From the sequence record OR757453.1: a DNA stretch of 64,000 bases; one strand, given 5' to 3'. Source of the DNA: Escherichia phage BYEP01. A model generated the notes under the pieces. It saw nothing but the letters and a program-made list of their open reading frames with translations. It did not search any database and was not told where the DNA came from. Position numbers and translations under genes: made by a program. Below, piece by piece: positions 3,846 through 46,151 of this stretch (the stretch's first letter is position 1; each line of letters starts with the position of its first letter).

Positions 3846-4308
3846 AGTAGCAAAACATTATTCAATAGAATTTATGTCTAAAGAAGGTAAATCAGTAAAT
3901 ACACTTGATAAAGAGTGCTCATTAATTATTCCTTTAGCAGAAAATCCGGATCTTTTAATTAAAGATATAAAAGAAAGAAAATATCCAGAAAATGTTATTC
4001 TAATTATAAAGCATACTGAAGATATTTTGCAGAATACTGATTCACCGTTTTCTTCTTCTGAAGCTTTAACTATTAAAGGCTATAAAAGAGCTCATGAATA
4101 TGGTCTTTTTGACCTGTTTGAAGACGATAAAGTTAAATTAGCGAGTCAACCTTCTAAAAGTAAAACATTCATTATTGAAGATATTAAAGATATAAATGCA
4201 TTTGTTAAGATGGTCTGGGCTCATTTTGATGTTGGACTACGCTGGAGAATGTCCGAAGAAGAAAGAAAGATTATTGAAACTAATCGTTATTTTGGTTTTT
4301 ATCGCTAG
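3838..4308 (+). CDS. hypothetical protein
   Basis: 156 aa ORF. Confidence 0.4.
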
Positions 4309-4316
4309 GAATTAAT

Positions 4317-4499
4317 ATGGATTTATTTGAGATGTTAGAAGATAATCATTCTACGAATATCCAGAATGATTCTAGTGATTATAAGAAAGAGTACCGTATA
4401 GTATTACAGAATTATGGAATTGAAGCCCCAGATGCTCTTCTAGAAGAACTAGCTTCATACCATCTTGACCCTCCGCCTTGGGCTCCCTGGGCAAAATAA
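4317..4499 (+). CDS. hypothetical protein
   Basis: 60 aa ORF. Confidence 0.3.
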   Translation: MDLFEMLEDNHSTNIQNDSSDYKKEYRIVLQNYGIEAPDALLEELASYHLDPPPWAPWAK

Positions 4500-4507
4500 T
4501 TCAAAAA

Positions 4508-4540
4508 GTTGTTTACTTTCCTTCCTAACAATGATATGAT
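4508..4540 (+). promoter_or_regulatory. early promoter
   Basis: GTTGTTTAC then TATGAT after about 17 nt. Confidence 0.55.
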
Positions 4541-4566
4541 AGCTTCTGAAGTATATGGAGGCTATC

Positions 4567-5190
4567 ATGATTATTAATCTTGCAGATGTTGAACAGTTAT
4601 CTATAAAAGCTGAAAGCGTTGATTTTCAATATGATATGTATAAAAAGGTCTGTGAAAAATTTACTGACTTTGAACAGTCAGTTCTTTGGCAATGCATGGA
4701 AGCCAAAAAGAATGAAGCTCTTCATCAGCAGTTGAATAAAATCGTTAAAAAGCATTTAACTAAATCGCCTTATCAGCTATATCGTGGTATATCAAAATCG
4801 ACAAAAGAACTCATTAAAGATTTACAAGTCGGAGAAGTGTTTTCAACGAACAGAGTAGATTCATTTACTACTAGTTTGCACACAGCATGTGGTTTTTCTT
4901 ATGTTGAGTATTTCACTGAAATAATATTTCGCTTAAAAACTGATAAAGCTTTTAATTATTCTGACCATATCAGCGATATTATACTTTCTTCTCCTAATAC
5001 TGAGTTTAAGTATACATATGAAGATACTGATGGATTAGATTCAGAACGTACTGATAACTTAATGATGATTGTGCGTGAACAAGAATGGATGATTCCAATT
5101 GGAAAGTATAAAATAACTTCTATTTCAAAAGAAAAATTACACGATTCATTTGGAACATTTAAAGTGTATGATATTGAGGTAGTTGAATGA
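4567..5190 (+). CDS. modB: ADP-ribosyltransferase ModB
   Basis: 207 aa from second ATG; R / S-T-x / E-Q-E ART motifs (YRG, STN, EQEWMIP). Confidence 0.7.
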   Translation: MIINLADVEQLSIKAESVDFQYDMYKKVCEKFTDFEQSVLWQCMEAKKNEALHQQLNKIVKKHLTKSPYQLYRGISKSTKELIKDLQVGEVFSTNRVDSFTTSLHTACGFSYVEYFTEIIFRLKTDKAFNYSDHISDIILSSPNTEFKYTYEDTDGLDSERTDNLMMIVREQEWMIPIGKYKITSISKEKLHDSFGTFKVYDIEVVE

Positions 5191-5789
5191 AATATTCAGC
5201 AATGCAATTAAAAGATTTTAAAATCAAATCAATGGATGCATCGGTGCGTGCTTCTATTCGTGAAGAATTACTTTCTGAAGGATTTAATTTATCTGAAATT
5301 GAACTTTTAATTCATTGTATTACTAATAAGCCAGACGATCATTCTTGGTTAAATGAAATAATCAAATCTCGTTTGGTTCCAAACGATAAACCTCTTTGGA
5401 GAGGTGTTCCAGTTGAGACTAAACAGGTGTTAAATCAAGGAATTGATATTATTACATTCGATAAAGTAGTATCAGCTTCATATGATAAAAATATAGCTCT
5501 GCATTTTGCTTCTGGATTAGAATACAACACACAAGTTATTTTTGAATTCAAAGCTCCTATGGTATTTAATTTTCAGGAGTATGCTATAAAAGCTCTACGT
5601 TGTAAAGAATATAGTCCGAGTTTTAAATTTCCAGATAGCCATCGCTATCGTAATATGGAATTAGTTTCAGATGAACAGGAAGTAATGATACCAGCTGGAA
5701 GTGTATTTAGAATTGCGGATAGATATGAATATAAAAAGTATTCAACATACACTATCTATACTCTTGATTTTGAAGGATTTAATCTATAA
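5187..5789 (+). CDS. modA: ADP-ribosyltransferase ModA
   Basis: 200 aa; ART motifs (WRG, SAS, EQEVMIP); paralog of the upstream ORF. Confidence 0.7.
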   Translation: MKYSAMQLKDFKIKSMDASVRASIREELLSEGFNLSEIELLIHCITNKPDDHSWLNEIIKSRLVPNDKPLWRGVPVETKQVLNQGIDIITFDKVVSASYDKNIALHFASGLEYNTQVIFEFKAPMVFNFQEYAIKALRCKEYSPSFKFPDSHRYRNMELVSDEQEVMIPAGSVFRIADRYEYKKYSTYTIYTLDFEGFNL

Positions 5790-5845
5790 TGGAAGGACTT
5801 AGATTCATTATACAATGAAAGTTTTAAAGCATTTTTCATAAAGTT

Positions 5846-5877
5846 GTTTACAAGCTGAAGTAAAAATGTTATAGTAT
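5846..5877 (+). promoter_or_regulatory. early promoter
   Basis: GTTTAC ... TATAGTAT. Confidence 0.55.
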
Positions 5878-5904
5878 AAGTAGTTAACCGTCCGTGAGAA
5901 AAAT

Positions 5905-6654
5905 ATGAAACTGTCTAAAAATCAAATTCGTAAAATTACACGTCGTCTAGAGCACACTCAGGCATCTGCTAAAAGACGCTCTAAAGATTTTAACTTAGAC
6001 TTCAATTACATTAAGAACATTTTAGATCAGAAAGTTTGCGCTTACTCGGGAGAACCTTTTGATAATCGTATTGAAGGAGAGAAATTATCATTAGAACGTT
6101 TTAATAACGATATCGGCTACATTAAAGGTAATGTTATCCCAGTTAAGAAAAAATATAACACGGCTCGTTCTGATTTAACATTAGAAGAACTTATTGAGAA
6201 ACGTGACGCTATTGCAAGACGTATTGCTAATCCTTCTGCTCGTAAAGTAGAGAAACTTAATCTCGACGAGAAGAAATGGGCCCAAATTAAAAAGGTTTAT
6301 GGTACTATTTTAAAAATCCGAGCAAAGCGTGAAAATCGTGTTAAGCATATGGCGAACATGATGAAAAATCAACCTTTATCTAACGAATCTAAACTTAAAA
6401 TTGTTGCTTTGAAAGCACGCATTAATGGCTCACATCAAGCAGAAGGCCATGAACTTACTAAACTCAACGTTCTTCTTAAAGGCTCTGATTGGAAAACTAA
6501 AACTAAATTAACTGACGCTGAATCGCTTTTCGATACATATGATAAAGTTATCAAAGGTCTGCAACGTTTTGAAAAGATTGGTTTCATTGGTAAATTAAAA
6601 TTGAAACGTGGCTTACCACTTAGTGCATCATTATTCCAACTGATTAAAGGTTAA
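5905..6654 (+). CDS. srd: Srd-like protein (sigma-related early protein)
   Basis: 249 aa ORF between modA and dda.1/dda; length and position fit T4 srd. Confidence 0.5.
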   Translation: MKLSKNQIRKITRRLEHTQASAKRRSKDFNLDFNYIKNILDQKVCAYSGEPFDNRIEGEKLSLERFNNDIGYIKGNVIPVKKKYNTARSDLTLEELIEKRDAIARRIANPSARKVEKLNLDEKKWAQIKKVYGTILKIRAKRENRVKHMANMMKNQPLSNESKLKIVALKARINGSHQAEGHELTKLNVLLKGSDWKTKTKLTDAESLFDTYDKVIKGLQRFEKIGFIGKLKLKRGLPLSASLFQLIKG

Positions 6655-11924: not shown

Positions 11925-13742
11925 ATGATTAAGAATGAAATTAAAATTCTGAGCGATATTGAACATATCAAAAAGCGTAGCGGCATGTACATTGGCTCTT
12001 CAGCTAATGAAATGCATGAGCGCTTTCTGTTTGGTAAATGGGAAAGTGTTCAGTATGTACCTGGTCTTGTTAAGCTTATTGATGAAATTATCGATAACTC
12101 AGTAGATGAAGGTATTCGTACTAAGTTTAAATTCGCAAATAAAATTAATGTTACCATTAAAAATAATCAGGTAACAGTTGAAGATAACGGTCGTGGTATT
12201 CCACAAGCGATGGTTAAAACACCTACCGGTGAAGAAATTCCTGGTCCTGTTGCTGCCTGGACTATTCCAAAAGCAGGTGGTAACTTTGGTGATGATAAAG
12301 AACGCGTCACCGGCGGTATGAATGGTGTTGGTTCTAGTTTAACTAACATTTTTTCTGTGATGTTTGTCGGTGAAACTGGCGACGGTCAAAATAATATTGT
12401 AGTTCGTTGTTCAAATGGCATGGAAAATAAATCATGGGAAACTATTCCTGGAAAATGGAAAGGAACTCGCGTTACTTTCATTCCTGATTTTATGTCATTT
12501 GAAACTAATGAGCTATCTCAGGTTTATCTTGACATTACACTGGATCGTCTCCAGACACTTGCAGTAGTTTATCCTGATATTCAATTTACCTTTAATGGTA
12601 AAAAGGTTCAGGGTAATTTTAAGAAATATGCACGTCAATATGATGAACATGCTATCGTTCAAGAACAAGAAAACTGTTCTATTGCGGTTGGTCGTTCGCC
12701 GGATGGTTTTCGTCAATTAACATACGTCAATAACATTCATACTAAGAATGGTGGCCATCACATTGACTGTGTTATGGATGATATTTGTGAAGACCTTATT
12801 CCACAAATCAAACGTAAATTTAAAATTGACGTAACTAAAGCACGTGTTAAAGAATGTTTGACTATCGTTATGTTTGTTCGTGATATGAAAAACATGCGAT
12901 TTGATTCTCAAACTAAAGAACGACTTACTTCTCCTTTTGGTGAAATTCGTAGTCATATTCAGCTTGATGCTAAAAAGATTTCACGTGCTATTTTAAATAA
13001 TGAAGCAATTTTAATGCCAATTATTGAAGCTGCCTTGGCTCGTAAATTGGCGGCAGAAAAAGCAGCAGAAACTAAAGCAGCTAAAAAGGCTTCTAAAGCT
13101 AAGGTTCATAAACATATTAAAGCGAATCTTTGCGGTAAAGATGCTGATACTACTCTTTTCTTGACTGAGGGTGATTCTGCTATCGGATATCTTATTGATG
13201 TTCGTGATAAAGAACTTCATGGTGGTTATCCATTGCGCGGTAAAGTTCTTAATAGCTGGGGTATGTCATATGCTGATATGCTTAAAAACAAAGAACTGTT
13301 TGATATTTGCGCAATCACTGGATTAGTTCTTGGCGAAAAGGCAGAGAATACGAACTATCGTAATATTGCAATTATGACTGACGCAGATCACGACGGTCTT
13401 GGAAGTATCTATCCGGCTTTGCTTGCTTTCTTTAGTAATTGGCCTGAATTGTTTGAACAAGGACGTATTCGCTTTGTTAAAACGCCTGTAATTATTGCAC
13501 AAATTGGCAAAACTCAAAAATGGTTTTATACTGTAGCTGAGTATGAAGAAGCTAAAGATGCTCTACCTAAGCATAGTATTCGATACATCAAGGGATTGGG
13601 CTCACTTCAGCGGGATGAATATAAAGAAATGATTCAAAACCCTGTGTACGACGTAGTTAAACTTCCTGAAAATTGGAAAGAACTATTTGAAATGCTCATG
13701 GGTAACGACCCTGAACTCCGTAAAGATTGGATGCTAGGATAA
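11925..13742 (+). CDS. 39: DNA topoisomerase II large subunit gp39, contiguous (no gene 60 split)
   Basis: 605 aa continuous ORF; GHKL ATPase N-terminus; Toprim-like region with DHDG; no internal stop or coding gap. Confidence 0.9.
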   Translation: MIKNEIKILSDIEHIKKRSGMYIGSSANEMHERFLFGKWESVQYVPGLVKLIDEIIDNSVDEGIRTKFKFANKINVTIKNNQVTVEDNGRGIPQAMVKTPTGEEIPGPVAAWTIPKAGGNFGDDKERVTGGMNGVGSSLTNIFSVMFVGETGDGQNNIVVRCSNGMENKSWETIPGKWKGTRVTFIPDFMSFETNELSQVYLDITLDRLQTLAVVYPDIQFTFNGKKVQGNFKKYARQYDEHAIVQEQENCSIAVGRSPDGFRQLTYVNNIHTKNGGHHIDCVMDDICEDLIPQIKRKFKIDVTKARVKECLTIVMFVRDMKNMRFDSQTKERLTSPFGEIRSHIQLDAKKISRAILNNEAILMPIIEAALARKLAAEKAAETKAAKKASKAKVHKHIKANLCGKDADTTLFLTEGDSAIGYLIDVRDKELHGGYPLRGKVLNSWGMSYADMLKNKELFDICAITGLVLGEKAENTNYRNIAIMTDADHDGLGSIYPALLAFFSNWPELFEQGRIRFVKTPVIIAQIGKTQKWFYTVAEYEEAKDALPKHSIRYIKGLGSLQRDEYKEMIQNPVYDVVKLPENWKELFEMLMGNDPELRKDWMLG

Positions 13743-14539
13743 TGAATTATCGTAAAATTTATGATAAACTTATCGCTGCGGCTAAAAACCGCAGCACTAT
13801 TCCTAATTATACTGAAACTCACCATATTTTGCCTAAATCTATGGGCGGGAGTAATGCTAAATCAAATCTAGTTAAAATGACCCCTAGAGAGCATTTTATC
13901 GCCCATTTATTGCTTTATAAAATTCATAAGAACCGTTCTATGCTTATGGCTATTAGAGCTTTTTACATGGGAGCTAGAAATTCTAGAGATTATGATTGGC
14001 TTAAACAAGAATTCTCTAAAGAGCACTCTAGATTTATGAAAGAATGGATTGCTAAAAATGGCAACCCATTTAAAGGTAAAAAACATACTAAAGCAACAAG
14101 AGAATTAATGTCACATATTGCTTCACAACGTATAGGCGAATTAAATCCATTTTATGGTAAAACTCATACGCAAGAAGCAATAGATAAAATAATACAGGCT
14201 AACAAGTTATCTTGGGAGAATGGGCGAAAAGCACCTGTAAAAACAAAAGAACACCAGGATAAAATAACTAAATCAAGAATGGAAACATTTAAAACAAAAG
14301 GATTTAAACCATACACTCCTAGGTCAGAAGAAACTAAAGCTAAGACTAGAGAGTTGTATAAATCTAAATATGAAAGAAGGCCTATAAGAATCACAAGTGT
14401 AAAAACAGGTGAAACTATTGATTTTAACTATCTTTATGAATTAAGGGAGTATTTAGATATAGGGTCTTCTAATATATTGAAAGCATTAAATAATCCTAAC
14501 AGAACCTGCAAAGGTTATAAAATGTGTTGGATGTCCTAA
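13742..14539 (+). CDS. HNH homing endonuclease (MobA-like, with NUMOD-like repeats)
   Basis: 265 aa; HNH core ETHHILPKSMGGSNAKSNLVKMTPREH; ATG overlaps the gene 39 stop (TAATG). Confidence 0.75.
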   Translation: MNYRKIYDKLIAAAKNRSTIPNYTETHHILPKSMGGSNAKSNLVKMTPREHFIAHLLLYKIHKNRSMLMAIRAFYMGARNSRDYDWLKQEFSKEHSRFMKEWIAKNGNPFKGKKHTKATRELMSHIASQRIGELNPFYGKTHTQEAIDKIIQANKLSWENGRKAPVKTKEHQDKITKSRMETFKTKGFKPYTPRSEETKAKTRELYKSKYERRPIRITSVKTGETIDFNYLYELREYLDIGSSNILKALNNPNRTCKGYKMCWMS

Positions 14540-14561
14540 GCTCCTTCGGGAGCTTCATTTT
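14539..14561 (+). terminator. UUCG-loop hairpin terminator
   Basis: AGCTCC-TTCG-GGAGCT then TCATTTT. Confidence 0.6.
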
Positions 14562-14656
14562 AATTTTAATAAGGCTTAATTATGAAAGTTATGTTTATCC
14601 CATCTCGTGCAGTCCCATTTAATCCTGACCTTCGTAAAGAATGGATGAGCCAATAG

Positions 14657-14685
14657 TTTACTTTACCACAAGGATGTGGTATAAT
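14657..14685 (+). promoter_or_regulatory. early promoter
   Basis: GTTTAC, 17-nt spacer, TATAAT. Confidence 0.65.
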
Positions 14686-14710: not shown

Positions 14711-14914
14711 ATGAAATCATATAGAGTAAATTTAGAACTTTTTGATAAAGCAGTTCATCGAGAATATAGAATCATTCAACGCTTTTTCGATATGGGAGAA
14801 GCCGAAGAGTTTAAAAACCGCTTTAAGGATATTAGAGATAAAATTCAATCCGACACTGCAACTAAAGACGAACTACTAGAAGTTGCTGAAGTTATTAAGC
14901 GTAATATGAATTAA
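14711..14914 (+). CDS. hypothetical protein (rIIA.1 position)
   Basis: 67 aa ORF. Confidence 0.4.
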
Positions 14915-14924
14915 TGAGGAAATT

Positions 14925-17102
14925 ATGATTATCACCACTGAAAAAGAAACAATTCTTGGTAATGGTTCTAAATCAAAAGCATTTAGCATCACAGCATCTC
15001 CTAAAGTATTTAAAATTCTATCATCTGATTTGTATACAAACAAGATTCGCGCAGTAGTCCGTGAATTGATTACTAATATGATTGATGCCCATGCTCTTAA
15101 TGGAAATCCTGAAAAATTTATCATTCAAGTTCCTGGACGTTTAGATCCACGATTTGTTTGCCGAGATTTTGGTCCGGGTATGAGTGATTTTGATATTCAG
15201 GGTGATGATAATTCTCCTGGTTTGTATAATTCATACTTCAGTTCATCTAAGGCTGAATCTAACGATTTCATTGGCGGATTTGGTTTAGGTTCTAAATCTC
15301 CGTTTAGTTATACTGATACATTTAGTATTACTTCATATCATAAAGGTGAAATTCGTGGTTATGTAGCTTACATGGATGGTGACGGTCCACAGATTAAACC
15401 TACATTCGTAAAAGAAATGGGTCCAAATGATAAAACTGGTATTGAAATCGTAGTTCCAGTTGAAGAAAAAGACTTTAGAAACTTTGCTTATGAAGTTTCT
15501 TATATCATGCGACCATTCAAAGATTTGGCTATCATTAATGGTCTTGACCGCGAAATTGATTATTTTCCGGATTTTGATGACTATTACGGTGTAAATCCAG
15601 AAAGATACTGGCCAGATCGCGGTGGATTATATGCTATCTATGGTGGTATTGTTTATCCTATCGATGGCGTTATTAGAGACCGTAACTGGTTAAGCATCCG
15701 CAATGAAGTGAATTACATTAAGTTTCCAATGGGTTCACTTGATATTGCCCCATCGCGTGAGGCTCTTTCATTAGATGATCGTACTCGTAAAAATATTATT
15801 GAGCGTGTTAAAGAGCTCAGTGAGCAGGCATTTAATGAAGATGTAAAACGATTTAAAGAATCTACATCTCCTCGTCATACATATCGCGAATTAATGAAGA
15901 TGGGATATTCTGCTCGAGATTATATGATTAGTAATTCAGTCAAATTCACGACTAAAAATCTGTCATATAAGAAGATGCAAAGCATGTTTGAACCTGACAG
16001 TAAGTTATGCAATGCAGGGGTTGTGTATGAAGTAAATCTTGACCCTCGACTGAAACGCATTAAGCAAAGCCATGAAACTTCAGCCGTTGCATCAAGTTAT
16101 CGTCTGTTTGGTATTAATACGACAAAAATTAATATTGTTATTGATAATACTAAAAATCGTGTTAATATTGTCCGTGGATTAGCACGTGCATTAGATGATA
16201 GCGAATTTAATAACACCTTAAATATTCATCACAATGAGCGGCTTCTGTTTATTAATCCAGAAGTAGAATCGCAGATTGATTTGCTTCCTGATATTATGGC
16301 AATGTTTGAAAGTGATGAAGTTAACATTCATTATTTGTCAGAAATCGAAGCTTTAGTTAAAAGTTATATTCCAAAGGCAGTAAAAAGTACAGCTCCTCGT
16401 CCTAAAACTGCTACTGCATTTAAGTTTGAAATTAAAGACGGGCGCTGGGAAAAAGAGGAATTGTTTACACTTACGTCAGAAGCAGATGAAATTACTGGTT
16501 ATGTAGCATACATGCATCGTTCTGATATTTTCTCTATGGATGGTACTACATCGCTTTGTCATCCATCTACGAATATTTTGATTCGTATGGCTAATCTTAT
16601 TGGCATTAATGAATTTTATGTTATTCGTCCACTTTTACAGAAAAAGGTAAAAGAACTTGGTCAGTGCCAATGTATTTTTGAAACTTTGCGTGATTTATAT
16701 GTAGATGCTTTTGATGATGTAGATTATGATAAGTATGTAGGTTATTCAAGTTCAGCTAAACGATATATTGATAAAATTATCAAGTATCCTGAGTTAGATT
16801 TTATGATGAAGTACTTCAGTGTAGATGAAGTTTCTGAAGAATATACACGACTCGCTAATATGGTTAGTTCATTACAGGGTGTATATTTTAATGGTGGAAA
16901 AGGTACCATTGGTCATGACATCTGGACAGTAACTAATCTTTTTGAAACACTATCATATAATGCTTCAAAAAACAGTGATAAAATGGTTGCTGAGTTTACC
17001 AAGAAATTCCGTATTGTTTCCGACTTCATCGGTTATCGCAATTCTTTAAGTGATGATGAAGTTTCCCAAATCGCTAAAACTATGAAGGCCCTTGCGGCCT
17101 AA
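14925..17102 (+). CDS. rIIA: rIIA protein
   Basis: 725 aa; GHKL-type ATPase-like N-terminus; length matches T4 rIIA. Confidence 0.9.
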
Positions 17103-42709: not shown

Positions 42710-42989
42710 ATATAAATCCGACTTTGATGTTAATATTCACCGTGGTACATTTTGGGGAAATTACGTCGGTAAAGATGCTGGCAGCCGGGAGGCTGCCATT
42801 GAATTATTCAAAAAAGATTTTATACGTCGAATTAAATCCGGAGAAATAACTAAAGCACATTTAGAGCCTTTACGTGGAATGAGGCTAGGATGCACATGTA
42901 AACCAAAGCCGTGTCATGGTGATATAATAGCTCATATAGTTAACCGATTGTTTAAAGACGATTTTCAAGTTGAGGACTTATGCAATTAA
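42663..42989 (+). CDS. hypothetical protein, possibly DUF4326-like (nrdA.1 position)
   Basis: 108 aa; C-terminal [12 protein letters not shown] motif. Confidence 0.4.
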
Positions 42990-44413
42990 TTAATGTTATC
43001 AAAAGTAGTGGTGTTTCTCAGAGCTTTGACCCACAAAAAATTATTAAAGTTTTATCTTGGGCAGCTGAAGGAACATCTGTAGATCCTTATGAATTATATG
43101 AAAATATTAAATCATATCTCCGTGATGGAATGACCACTGATGACATTCAGACTATTGTCATTAAGGCTGCTGCGAATTCTATTTCGGTTGAAGAGCCTGA
43201 TTATCAATATGTAGCTGCACGCTGTTTAATGTTTGCTCTTCGTAAGCATGTTTACGGGCAATATGAACCACGTTCATTTATTGACCATATTTCTTACTGC
43301 GTAAATGAAGGTAAATATGACCCTGAATTGTTGTCAAAATATTCAGCAGAAGAAATTACATTTTTAGAATCAAAAATTAAGCACGAGCGGGATATGGAAT
43401 TTACTTATTCCGGGGCGATGCAATTAAAAGAAAAATATCTAGTTAAAGATAAAACCACTGGTCAAATTTATGAAACTCCACAGTTTGCATTTATGGCTAT
43501 TGGAATGGCACTGCATCAAGATGAACCTGTTGATAGATTAAAACATGTCATTCGTTTTTATGAAGCAGTATCTACTCGACAGATTTCATTGCCAACTCCT
43601 ATTATGGCTGGTTGTCGTACTCCAACTCGACAGTTTAGTTCATGCGTTGTTATTGAAGCAGGTGATTCGCTGAAGTCTATCAATAAGGCTTCTGCTTCAA
43701 TTGTTGAGTATATTTCTAAACGAGCTGGAATTGGCATTAACGTTGGTATGATTCGTGCCGAAGGTTCTAAGATTAGCACAGGTGAAGTGCGTCATACTGG
43801 TGTTATTCCTTTTTGGAAACATTTTCAGACTGCAGTTAAATCATGCTCACAGGGTGGAATTCGTGGCGGCGCTGCTACTGCTTATTATCCTATTTGGCAT
43901 TTGGAAGTTGAAAATCTTCTCGTTTTGAAAAATAACAAAGGCGTAGAAGAAAACCGTATTCGTCATATGGATTATGGCGTCCAGCTGAATGATTTGATGA
44001 TGGAACGTTTTGGAAAGAACGACTACATTACTTTGTTCAGTCCACATGAAATGGGTGGTGAGCTTTATTATTCTTATTTTAAAGACCAAGACCGTTTCCG
44101 TGAATTATATGAAGCCGCAGAAAAAGACCCTAATATTCGTAAAAAGCGTATTAAAGCCCGTGAACTGTTTGAATTGCTCATGACTGAACGATCAGGAACA
44201 GCAAGGATTTATGTACAGTTCATAGATAATACGAATAACTATACTCCGTTTATTCGTGAAAAGGCACCTATTCGTCAGAGCAACTTGTGTTGTGAAATTG
44301 CTATTCCAACAAATGATGTGAATAGTCAACAAACCCGTTTAATCAAAATTAAGAAGTCGGATGTAGCTAAGTTTTATGAAGCTAATCCTGGCGGTATAAT
44401 TCAAAGCAAATAA
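42980..44413 (+). CDS. nrdA: ribonucleotide reductase large subunit, N-terminal fragment
   Basis: ATP cone; active-site NLCCEIAIPT; ends 28 aa after PTNDVNS in non-NrdA sequence. Confidence 0.85.
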   Translation: MQLINVIKSSGVSQSFDPQKIIKVLSWAAEGTSVDPYELYENIKSYLRDGMTTDDIQTIVIKAAANSISVEEPDYQYVAARCLMFALRKHVYGQYEPRSFIDHISYCVNEGKYDPELLSKYSAEEITFLESKIKHERDMEFTYSGAMQLKEKYLVKDKTTGQIYETPQFAFMAIGMALHQDEPVDRLKHVIRFYEAVSTRQISLPTPIMAGCRTPTRQFSSCVVIEAGDSLKSINKASASIVEYISKRAGIGINVGMIRAEGSKISTGEVRHTGVIPFWKHFQTAVKSCSQGGIRGGAATAYYPIWHLEVENLLVLKNNKGVEENRIRHMDYGVQLNDLMMERFGKNDYITLFSPHEMGGELYYSYFKDQDRFRELYEAAEKDPNIRKKRIKARELFELLMTERSGTARIYVQFIDNTNNYTPFIREKAPIRQSNLCCEIAIPTNDVNSQQTRLIKIKKSDVAKFYEANPGGIIQSK

Positions 44414-45227
44414 AGTACACAGACCGTTAATAATAAATAATCCATAACAAGAGGAAAAGTTATGGATTATTCTAAAATTTACAATAACCTTATTTCTAAA
44501 GCTAAGAATAGAAAATTAGATTGCTATACCGAATCACACCATATTATACCTCTGTGTATTGGCGGTTCTGATACAAAAGAAAACCTGGTAGATTTGACAC
44601 CAGAAGAGCATTACATAGCTCATCAATTATTAGTAAAGATATATCCAGATAATCATAAATTGATATTTGCCGCTAATATGATGTGTGTTTATTCTGAAGA
44701 TAATATTGAACGAAAGAACACCAATAAACGTCATGGGTGGCTTAGAAGAAAATTGGCTATTTCTGTATCTGAAAATAATAAAGGCAAACCGGCTTGGAAC
44801 AAAGGTATTCCTATGTCTCCAGAAGTTAAATCTCGACTTCAAACATCTTGGGTGTTTACATTTCCGGATGGTCATGAGGAAATTCATCGAGGTCTTAACG
44901 AATTTTGTAAAGAGCATAATTTAAATGCATCTGCGATGTCAGCCGTTTGTAAAGGTAAACGGGCGCATCACAAAGGATTTAAGTGTAAGAAATTGGATAA
45001 GATTTCAGAGCTTGATAATTTAGTTTTCGTCAGTAAACCTCATCCAAAGGGATTAAAACCCCATAACTTAATTGCTGTAAAAATAAACGGTATAGAATAT
45101 CAATCAATACATCGAGCATCTAAAGCTTTAGGAATTACTAGAAAAAAGGTAGAAGAATTAAATGAATATTGATTATGAATTTGTAGATGAATTTTACGAA
45201 GATGATGAGTATACTACAATAGAAGTT
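44327..45227 (+). mobile_element. homing endonuclease insertion splitting nrdA
   Basis: about 900 nt between NrdA-homologous segments; contains the HNH ORF; no group I core motifs; stops in all continuing frames. Confidence 0.7.
44462..45172 (+). CDS. HNH homing endonuclease (MobE-like)
   Basis: 236 aa; HNH core ESHHIIPLCIGGSDTKENLVDLTPEEH; AGAGGA RBS. Confidence 0.75.
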   Translation: MDYSKIYNNLISKAKNRKLDCYTESHHIIPLCIGGSDTKENLVDLTPEEHYIAHQLLVKIYPDNHKLIFAANMMCVYSEDNIERKNTNKRHGWLRRKLAISVSENNKGKPAWNKGIPMSPEVKSRLQTSWVFTFPDGHEEIHRGLNEFCKEHNLNASAMSAVCKGKRAHHKGFKCKKLDKISELDNLVFVSKPHPKGLKPHNLIAVKINGIEYQSIHRASKALGITRKKVEELNEY

Positions 45228-46151
45228 ATTGAAAACAGGGGAGAAGTGGGGCTTTGTACCCTTAGCGCATTTGTGTTGGATAACTTCGATTGGCAAGACC
45301 AAGACAAAATTAATGAATTAGCAGAAGTTCAAGTTCGTGCTCTTGATAATCTTTTGGACTACCAAGGATATCCAGTTCCTGAAGCAGAAAAAGCTAAAAA
45401 GCGTCGAAACCTTGGCGTAGGTGTTACTAACTATGCAGCTTGGCTGGCAAGTAACTTTGCTTCTTATGAAGATGCTAACGATTTAACACATGAACTATTT
45501 GAGAGATTGCAGTATGGACTCATTAAAGCATCCATTAAGCTCGCCAAAGAAAAAGGACCTTGCGAATATTATTCAGACACTCGTTGGTCTCGAGGCGAAT
45601 TACCTATCGACTGGTACAATAAAAAGATTGACCAAATCGCAGCTCCAAAATACGTTTGTGATTGGGACGAACTTCGATCTGAACTCAAACAGCATGGAAT
45701 TCGAAATTCTACTTTATCCGCGTTGATGCCGTGTGAATCATCCAGTCAGGTATCTAACAGTACAAACGGTATCGAGCCTCCACGTGGACCAGTCTCTGTT
45801 AAAGAATCAAAAGAGGGTTCCTTTAATCAAGTCGTGCCCAATATTGAGCATAACATAGACCTCTATGATTATACGTGGAAATTAGCTAAGAAAGGTAATA
45901 AACCTTATCTTACGCAGGTAGCTATTATGCTGAAATGGGTATGTCAATCAGCTTCAGCGAATACATATTATGACCCGCAGATTTTTCCAAAAGGAAAGGT
46001 TCCAATGTCTGTAATGATTGATGACATGCTATACGGATGGTATTATGGCATTAAAAACTTCTATTATCATAATACCCGTGATGGTTCTGGTACTGATGAT
46101 TATGAAATAGAAACTCCCAAAGCTGAAGATTGTTCATCCTGTAAATTATGA
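45162..46151 (+). CDS. nrdA: ribonucleotide reductase large subunit, C-terminal fragment
   Basis: aligns with E. coli NrdA from GEVGLCTLSAF to C-terminal CSSCKL; own ATG overlaps the HNH ORF end. Confidence 0.85.
   Translation: MNIDYEFVDEFYEDDEYTTIEVIENRGEVGLCTLSAFVLDNFDWQDQDKINELAEVQVRALDNLLDYQGYPVPEAEKAKKRRNLGVGVTNYAAWLASNFASYEDANDLTHELFERLQYGLIKASIKLAKEKGPCEYYSDTRWSRGELPIDWYNKKIDQIAAPKYVCDWDELRSELKQHGIRNSTLSALMPCESSSQVSNSTNGIEPPRGPVSVKESKEGSFNQVVPNIEHNIDLYDYTWKLAKKGNKPYLTQVAIMLKWVCQSASANTYYDPQIFPKGKVPMSVMIDDMLYGWYYGIKNFYYHNTRDGSGTDDYEIETPKAEDCSSCKL

Follow-up and report, generated by a model that had tools for sequence, protein, structure and literature searches.

How does a mobile endonuclease gene come to lie across the stop codon of an essential replication gene and still leave that gene whole? 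The question is raised by a 64,000-nucleotide stretch of Escherichia phage BYEP01 (record OR757453.1), called the window below, to whose numbering coordinates refer unless another record is named; the features of this locus all lie on its plus strand. BYEP01 is a Tequatrovirus, with 94–96% identity to many database records over 20 kb. Its gene 39, encoding the large subunit of topoisomerase II, is a single open reading frame (ORF) of 605 codons running from an ATG at 11925 to a TAA at 13740–13742, and a second ORF, for a 265-residue putative HNH endonuclease, begins on the last base of that stop codon. In phage T4 the same subunit is divided between genes 39 and 60. We argue that the HNH ORF is probably a free-standing homing endonuclease of the Mob family that is specialised for the 3′ end of gene 39, and that the cassette carrying it crossed between phage genera once.

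Gene 39 is unsplit

Gene 39 (11925..13742) encodes a protein, gp39, that aligns without gaps to residues 1–473 of T4 gp39 (98% identity) and to residues 27–158 of T4 gp60 (84% identity); the gp60-equivalent region thus belongs to the same uninterrupted frame, which contains neither a MobA insert nor the 50-nt gap. The Pfam domains HATPase_c, DNA_gyraseB, Toprim and TOPRIM_C all lie within this one ORF, and NCBIfam GyrB/ParE models cover residues 4–603. Gene 39 is thus an unsplit topoisomerase II large subunit of the T2/T6 type; the two-subunit T2/T6 enzyme is documented in PMC11461880. A sequence-only reading of this DNA had described gene 39 as one 605-residue ORF without a coding gap. The ORF coordinates and the T4 alignment agree with that description, and the gp60 region, whose lack would have spoken against it, is in place.

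The position at which T4 and its relatives carry the MobA and bypass element corresponds to 13343..13397 and is uninterrupted here. Homology to T4 and CJY920, in which the element is about 1.1 kb long, breaks at 13342–13406. Manning & Atkins place the MobA insert between Topo2L nt 1399–1419 and D490/G491. The marks of a MobA-type TOPRIM insertion (Topo2L nt ~1399–1473), namely the interruption itself, extension peptides and a bypass cassette, are all missing from BYEP01, where 13343–13397 is continuous. The gene is nevertheless a mosaic of three parts: Tequatrovirus-type up to about 13409, RB69-like Mosigvirus-type from about 13478 to 13597, and linked to the HNH element from 13598 to 13742. 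Such a three-way mosaic matters for both phylogeny and annotation.

The HNH protein is a predicted Mob-family enzyme

The HNH gene (13742..14539) has its ATG at 13742 and its TAA at 14537–14539, and overlaps the gene 39 stop by one base in the sequence TAATG, as the sequence-only reading had placed it. Its product matches PHROG 655, ‘homing endonuclease’ (E = 1e-55), and the Pfam family NUMOD3 in two stretches (36.5 bits against a cut-off of 20.4), which bears out the NUMOD-like repeats proposed earlier. Because of these matches, and because most of the 27 GenBank/RefSeq records that contain this ORF label it a homing endonuclease, we judge it to be a real gene and not a chance ORF. The protein is laid out as an HNH domain at residues ~20–60, NUMOD3 repeats at ~105–200 and, following these, a C-terminal helix-turn-helix (HTH)-like module at ~210–263. 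TIGR01453 aligns with residues 109–253 (E = 2e-8, under its cut-off). The HTH assignment is the weaker one: only a distant relative, P0004 (see below), matches PF22083, and that at a sub-threshold score.

An alignment of 39 homologues shows no variation at N42, H51 and H55 and almost none at H27 and H28. An AlphaFold model of the protein (mean predicted local distance difference test score, pLDDT, of 86.6) has strands at residues 25–28 and 43–46 and a helix at 48–62, which form a beta-beta-alpha core. This is followed by a run of helices and then by a C-terminal beta-beta-alpha-alpha-beta module with pLDDT of 86–95. The top structural match in the PDB was I-HmuI (Foldseek probability 1.0, E = 4e-3), with other HNH domains next, and a PDB search by sequence gave a single weak match, to the McrA HNH motif (E = 0.38). 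The modelled core, a beta-beta-alpha-metal fold with the catalytic His, structural Asn and metal-binding His residues in place, is that of the HNH (His-Me finger) nucleases, and the enzyme looks intact.

Likeness to known Mob enzymes is limited mainly to the nuclease domain. The intact MobA of CJY920 (272 aa, GTG start) shares 61% identity with residues 1–71 of the HNH protein, with no significant similarity to that MobA past residue 71, so that the remaining ~195 residues are unrelated. Identity to a MobE-like protein is 58% over 65 aligned columns; identity to MobD is 36% over 202 aligned columns and takes in the NUMOD3 region as well. As in the Mob family, an N-terminal Mob-type HNH domain is joined to a distinct C-terminal DNA-binding region, and the gene, free of introns and inteins, sits at a conserved gene and is patchily distributed among close relatives. 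Since full-length similarity to MobA is lacking and the resemblance stops at residue 71, the HNH protein appears to be a Mob-family enzyme with a DNA-binding half of its own, representing a separate lineage of homing endonucleases and not an orthologue of MobA. The link to the MobA family that the sequence-only reading had drawn thus stands for the nuclease domain and fails for the rest of the protein, which is not a MobA that has moved. The gene is a previously uncharacterised but database-annotated free-standing homing endonuclease gene of the Mob family.

The insert enters two codons before the gene 39 stop

In RB69, which has no HNH gene, gene 39 ends in ...CGTAAAGAATGGATGTCCTAA and is followed by the hairpin GCTCCTTCGGGAGC and then by the ATG of ORF003c (366 aa). 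Mosigvirus carriers have a gene 39 end of ...CGTAAAGATTGGATGCTAGGATAATG... and an HNH ORF that ends in ...TGTTGGATGTCCTAA, after which comes the same hairpin as in RB69. Set against NHEP36, which has no HNH gene (...GATTGGATGTCCTAA), carriers have an insert of exactly 800 bp with TGGATG on both sides. RB69 likewise is without the 800 bp, and the HNH ORF closes with RB69’s own last codons, stop and terminator. Comparison with these Mosigvirus empty sites puts the left copy of TGGATG in the window at 13728..13733 and the right copy at 14528..14533; from the latter onward, the W, M, S and stop codons that close the HNH ORF are the ancestral Mosigvirus gene 39 end. The flanking copies place the insertion point two codons ahead of the gene 39 stop. 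Upon insertion the C-terminus of gp39 changes from ...EWMS-stop to ...DWMLG-stop, where the new LG-stop end is supplied by the insert and the HNH start lies over the new stop.

Foreign gene 39 sequence always accompanies the insert, over ~140–180 bp. Mosigvirus phi25-307, a carrier, is 97–100% identical to RB69 over gene 39 nt 133–1617, dropping to 84–89% for the final ~200 nt; resolved base by base, the foreign tract spans ~13598–13727. Two clusters of substitutions stand out within it. Region A (13604..13626) has 12 differences from RB69 in 23 bp, encodes LQRDEYKE in place of the naive LEKSEYRE, and is a candidate cleavage-immunity or target region. Region B (13685..13727), just upstream of the insertion point, encodes GNDPELRKD where naive phages have GDNADLRKE or GDDSELRKE. 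The region A allele was found in 36 phage records, of which 27 carry the HNH gene and 9 lack it. The region B allele was found in 34, made up of the same 27, six scar alleles (described below) and NHEP36. Because both alleles are almost confined to phages with the HNH gene or its footprints, the tract appears to be linked to the element, and for the same reason we rejected the idea that this 3′ tract is the native gene 39 of a third lineage. The sequence-only reading had the endonuclease beside gene 39 instead of inside it. This is half right: the gene is unsplit, but the cassette entered within its last codons and brought foreign gene 39 sequence along.

Distribution, decay and loss

The HNH gene is present at the end of gene 39 in 27 of the 724 phage records with megablast matches to gene 39. 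Once GenBank/RefSeq duplicates are removed these are 21 distinct isolates, and most of the records annotate the ORF as ‘homing endonuclease’. Five isolates are Tequatroviruses (F1, FN, fPS-90, FL12 and CJY920) and the remaining carriers show the Mosigvirus pattern; those whose classification as Mosigvirus was checked are phi25-307, AV115, a20 and AV118. Across the 27 records the HNH protein is at least 98.9% identical, whereas overall identity between the two groups in gene 39 DNA is only ~86%. HNH DNA from 11 loci varies at no more than 12 sites in 890 bp. A scan of IMG/VR with the HNH protein returned one close copy, a duplicate of phiE142, and distant partial relatives that were of no use for defining boundaries.

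Two copies are frameshifted in the same run of A residues at ~14071–14083 (near 14077), by one added A in AV118 and one missing A in ECO111 5-P. Either decay at a slippage-prone site or a homopolymer sequencing error could account for the two frameshifts. Six Mosigvirus records (LF82-4, OLB35, phiEC1, TH12, TH58 and CCU7) have a scar in place of the gene, with the sequence ...GATTGGATGCTTGGTTAATTGATAGATGTCCTAA. The scar retains the DWMLG-stop end and leaves 16 bp from the two ends of the insert; neither the Shine-Dalgarno (SD) sequence nor the ATG of the HNH gene survives, and its ORF is gone. NHEP36 has an exact empty site and yet has regions A and B, and SP21535 and JM17 have region A only. 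Gain, decay and loss of the HNH gene all appear to be visible in these empty, scarred and frameshifted alleles.

The association of the HNH gene with gene 39 seems to be old. When 5.8 billion proteins were searched, the only full-length distant relatives were P0002 (45% identity), P0003 (45%) and P0004 (41%). Each of them is encoded directly after an unsplit gene 39 of 606–607 aa on a metagenomic T4-like contig, and the gp39 of these three contigs is 79%, 73% and 44% identical to that of BYEP01. At the metagenomic locus L025 the HNH ORF overlaps the gene 39 stop, and here too what comes next looks like the leftover end of a gene 39 (...CGTAAAGAGTGGATGAATCAATAG); where exactly the two join is ambiguous.

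Shewanella phage Thanatos-1 encodes a full-length homologue of the HNH protein (H128, at 89018–89761 of its genome; 30% identity) that adjoins the gene for the topoisomerase large subunit. The association may therefore extend past enterobacterial T4-like phages.

Junctions in the Tequatrovirus carriers

BYEP01 shares with Mosigvirus phi25-307 a block of ~1.2 kb (~13400–14630; first Mosigvirus-specific site 13478) in which the two are 98–100% identical. Outside the block, identity to phi25-307 is 62–90% over the rest of gene 39 and 70% over rIIA.1. The left boundary is a homologous crossover between a Tequatrovirus recipient and a Mosigvirus-type donor at 13410..13477, bounded by the last Tequatrovirus-specific site at 13409 and the first Mosigvirus-specific site at 13478. 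Native Mosigvirus gene 39 sequence (13478–13597) therefore travelled together with the element-linked tract (13598–13742). A small patch of Tequatrovirus type is found inside the imported region at 13560–13565. Other carriers have the left crossover elsewhere: at 13364–13383 in FL12, upstream of 13338 in fPS-90 and at ~13551–13575 in CJY920.

On the right, Mosigvirus sequence continues beyond the HNH stop and through the terminator and 16 codons of ORF003c (ATG at 14582). It ends at an illegitimate junction marked by 11 bp of microhomology, TAAT(C/G)CTGACC (14620..14630). Homology to naive Tequatroviruses begins at 14620, and from there on the sequence is 97–99% Tequatrovirus-type. Immediately after the microhomology lies what is left of the native 3′ end of Tequatrovirus gene 39 (TTCGTAAAGAATGGATGAGCCAATAG; 14631..14656, with its stop at 14654–14656). 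This remnant matches the corresponding ends in SP21535, T4 and IME537 exactly, and is displaced ~0.9 kb downstream of the present gene 39 stop. Comparison across the junction also accounts for a chimeric ORF of 24 codons at 14582..14656 (MKVMFIPSRAVPFNPDLRKEWMSQ and a stop), composed of 16 codons from the 5′ end of ORF003c plus 8 codons and the stop of the old gene 39. We considered whether this small ORF might be a miniature ‘gene 60’ and rejected the idea, since its 5′ portion comes from the beginning of Mosigvirus ORF003c. A breakpoint common to this remnant and L025, TCGTAAAGA, is ambiguous and may be the native end of the L025 HNH ORF, and we did not use it.

The right junction is exclusive to the seven HNH-carrying Tequatrovirus records. 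Because these carriers have this one right junction in common and vary in their left crossovers, we read the pattern as one founding transfer from Mosigvirus to Tequatrovirus, followed by spread or erosion through homologous exchange.

The position of the left crossover bears on whether the HNH enzyme could be a relocated MobA orthologue that still acts at the MobA site in the TOPRIM region (~13343–13397) and merely resides ~350 bp downstream. The imported tract in BYEP01 begins only 13–80 bp beyond the MobA insertion site, the nuclease domain is 61% identical to that of MobA, and free-standing endonucleases such as SegF and SegG can cut hundreds of bp from their own genes. Against this, the DNA-binding part of the HNH protein (residues 72–265) has no similarity to MobA, the left boundary varies and in CJY920 (~13551–13575) falls well downstream of the MobA site, the foreign tract in Mosigvirus starts only ~140–180 bp upstream of the insert, and both elements coexist in CJY920. 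We regard relocation of MobA as very unlikely and prefer a separate Mob-family enzyme directed at the gene 39 3′ end.

CJY920 carries an intact MobA gene (4029–4847 of its record, within a split gene 39/60) and, after gene 60, the gene 39-end HNH gene (5360–6157). The MobA and HNH elements are therefore compatible in one topoisomerase locus.

Expression signals

A weak SD sequence (AGGA) is located 2 nt ahead of the HNH ATG. The T4 late promoter TATAAATA was not found anywhere near the HNH gene, and sigma-70-like matches between 11500 and 15000 were not in excess (12 found, 13.8 expected). An RNA hairpin over the HNH SD and AUG (z = −1.98, with 7 of 200 shuffles folding as well) is suggestive at most and was not used. 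There is a gene 39 promoter upstream, and after the HNH gene a scan found an intrinsic terminator, the hairpin AAGCTCC-TTCG-GGAGCTT with a T-run, at 14538..14565. This hairpin also follows the RB69 gene 39 stop, and the fPS-90 annotation lists it as a terminator; what was the Mosigvirus gene 39 terminator now closes the gene 39–HNH transcript. These signals fit a promoter-less cassette. The HNH gene would be co-transcribed with gene 39 and its translation coupled at the TAATG, with low output. A promoter-less, SD-poor and stop-overlapping layout is typical of the free-standing endonuclease genes of T4 (PMC2988022).

Carrier Tequatroviruses have gained the Mosigvirus terminator between gene 39 and rIIA.1, where naive Tequatroviruses have a gap of ~55 bp without one. 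The gained terminator could alter read-through into rIIA.1 and rIIA. A promoter-like site of rIIA.1 at 14657–14685 is kept.

Tight translational coupling to an essential replication gene might also suggest that the phage has domesticated the HNH protein for a function of its own, for example the exclusion of competitors or a role in topoisomerase-linked DNA metabolism. Homing endonucleases of T4 do cause localised marker exclusion of T2 (reviewed in PMC2988022); however, marker exclusion is the same mechanism viewed from the phage’s side. More than 95% of related phages lack the gene, the scar alleles attest how readily it is lost, and its product has the architecture of a typical modular homing endonuclease. 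Domestication therefore strikes us as a remote prospect next to a role in homing.

Proposed mechanism and the evidence against it

In a mixed infection, by analogy with MobA and MobE, the HNH enzyme would nick or cut gene 39 alleles that lack the HNH gene, close to their 3′ end. Repair of the cut genome by recombination with a carrier genome would then copy in the HNH gene and its flanks, and the carrier itself would be protected by the substitutions in regions A and B together with the insertion. MobA and MobE nick alleles that lack the homing endonuclease gene and are over-inherited in crosses (PMC2988022; bioRxiv 10.1101/2022.08.31.505936). For the HNH protein, we infer nicking and over-inheritance from the near-identical block found across genera and from the co-converted flanks. 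In the step from a Mosigvirus-like donor to a Tequatrovirus, the left side was joined by homologous exchange in gene 39 and the right side at the 11-bp microhomology.

Several observations weigh against this reading. Pfam HNH models score 16–16.7 bits on the protein, under their cut-offs of 21.4–27.5. No promoter of its own was found for the gene, and the spacing of 2 nt between SD and ATG may make expression very low. Frameshifts are present in two of the 27 copies, though these could be homopolymer sequencing errors. The window also keeps 37 bp of naive gene 39 end (14620–14656). If the target lay wholly inside that segment the phage would cut itself, so the target cannot lie wholly there. 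Free recombination among T-even phages could make part of the mosaic without any nuclease. Finally, the literature searched yielded no paper on the HNH protein or on any endonuclease located at the 3′ end of gene 39.

Some of these points would be expected if the HNH gene were an inactive passenger, within a block that passed between Mosigvirus and Tequatrovirus through ordinary homologous recombination during mixed infections. T-even genomes are patchwork throughout, and even HNH-less SP21535 is patchy in this region; the two frameshifted copies and the failure to find expression signals belonging to the gene itself point the same way. However, the only ~100% identical block in the region centres on the HNH gene, 25 of the 27 copies are intact with their catalytic residues conserved, and the distant relatives hold their place after gene 39 even where gp39 identity is down to 44%. 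The illegitimate right junction also fits break repair better than a routine crossover. A passenger thus seems improbable to us, though less so than either relocation of MobA or domestication, and we favour an active homing endonuclease.

A more ambitious version is possible, and we offer it tentatively. An old HNH family might have specialised in the final ~150 bp of the topoisomerase gene and enter it by a ‘terminal-codon swap’; the scars and regions A and B would be immunity alleles, and the Tequatrovirus junction the trace of a cross-genus invasion that was homologous on one side and used microhomology on the other. If this is true, the swap, in which a substitute C-terminus is provided and the host stop and terminator are taken over, avoids the gene splitting and bypass that go with MobA. 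Scars and regions A and B in HNH-less phages would then protect them as the T4 bypass insert protects against MobA.

Neighbouring genes

The order gene 39, HNH gene, rIIA.1 (14711..14914; PF24210, E = 2e-33) and rIIA (14925–17102) follows the T4 order downstream, with rIIA.1 as the native neighbour. Extra ORFs also overlap or abut the start of gene 39 in some phages: AV115 has one for a 227-aa hypothetical protein (L021, 672–1355) and AV118 one of 135 aa (L023, 948–1355). In L025 a 235-aa Endonuclease_7 protein is encoded at the gene 39 start (1144–1851), so that gene 39 there is bracketed by nuclease genes.

The window contains a second Mob-like HNH ORF at 44462–45172 (236 aa), whose N-terminus is 54% identical to that of the gene 39 HNH protein. 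It splits nrdA (42980–46151) into a 477-aa N-terminal part (42980–44413) and a 329-aa C-terminal part (45162–46151). The split nrdA resembles the Aeh1-type ‘genes in pieces’ ribonucleotide reductase.

Comparison with known systems

Current understanding is not overturned by this locus: it holds a known kind of mobile element whose history is unusually well reconstructable. It offers a natural series of naive, carrier, frameshifted and scar alleles and an exact empty site with converted flanks, as well as a transfer between phage genera in which each junction can be read to the nucleotide. It is therefore suited to studying target choice at gene ends, the origin of immunity alleles and the transfer of essential-gene sequence between genera. 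It also appears to present a second, independent lineage of homing endonuclease in the gene that houses the MobA and bypass element of T4, with a simpler way of sparing the host gene.

The closest comparison is with the MobA element of T4. Both elements have a Mob-type nuclease in the topoisomerase large-subunit gene, replacement coding sequence brought by the insert, an ORF that overlaps the end of the upstream topoisomerase ORF and a scattered occurrence among close relatives. Unlike MobA, the HNH element has its insertion point ~340 bp closer to the 3′ end of the gene, two codons ahead of the stop, and leaves gene 39 unsplit. It needs no C- or N-terminal extension peptides and no bypass, and its DNA-binding region is unrelated. 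In T4 itself mobA is a pseudogene (bioRxiv 10.1101/2022.08.31.505936).

MobE, which lies in the nrdA/nrdB interval of T4 and splits nrdA in Aeh1, and MobD are like the HNH gene in being free-standing and promoter-less, in overlapping an essential upstream gene and in being probably coupled to it. MobD and the HNH protein have the nuclease domain and the NUMOD3 region in common. MobE and MobD differ in their host genes and targets, and the HNH cassette, unlike them, rewrites the last codons of its host gene.

I-HmuI of Bacillus phage SPO1 (PDB 1U3E) resembles the HNH protein in its elongated modular build, with an HNH domain, helical DNA-binding modules and a C-terminal HTH. It nicks one strand and, unlike the HNH gene, is intron-encoded; identity is 18% over 88 aligned columns. 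The HNH subtype is HH...N...H...H here, in contrast to what we take to be DH...N in I-HmuI.

SegF and SegG of T4 are, like the HNH gene, free-standing beside a conserved gene, with co-conversion of flanking sequence and with carriers thought to be protected by sequence differences. They differ from the HNH enzyme in being GIY-YIG endonucleases that make double-strand breaks, with cleavage sites mapped experimentally.

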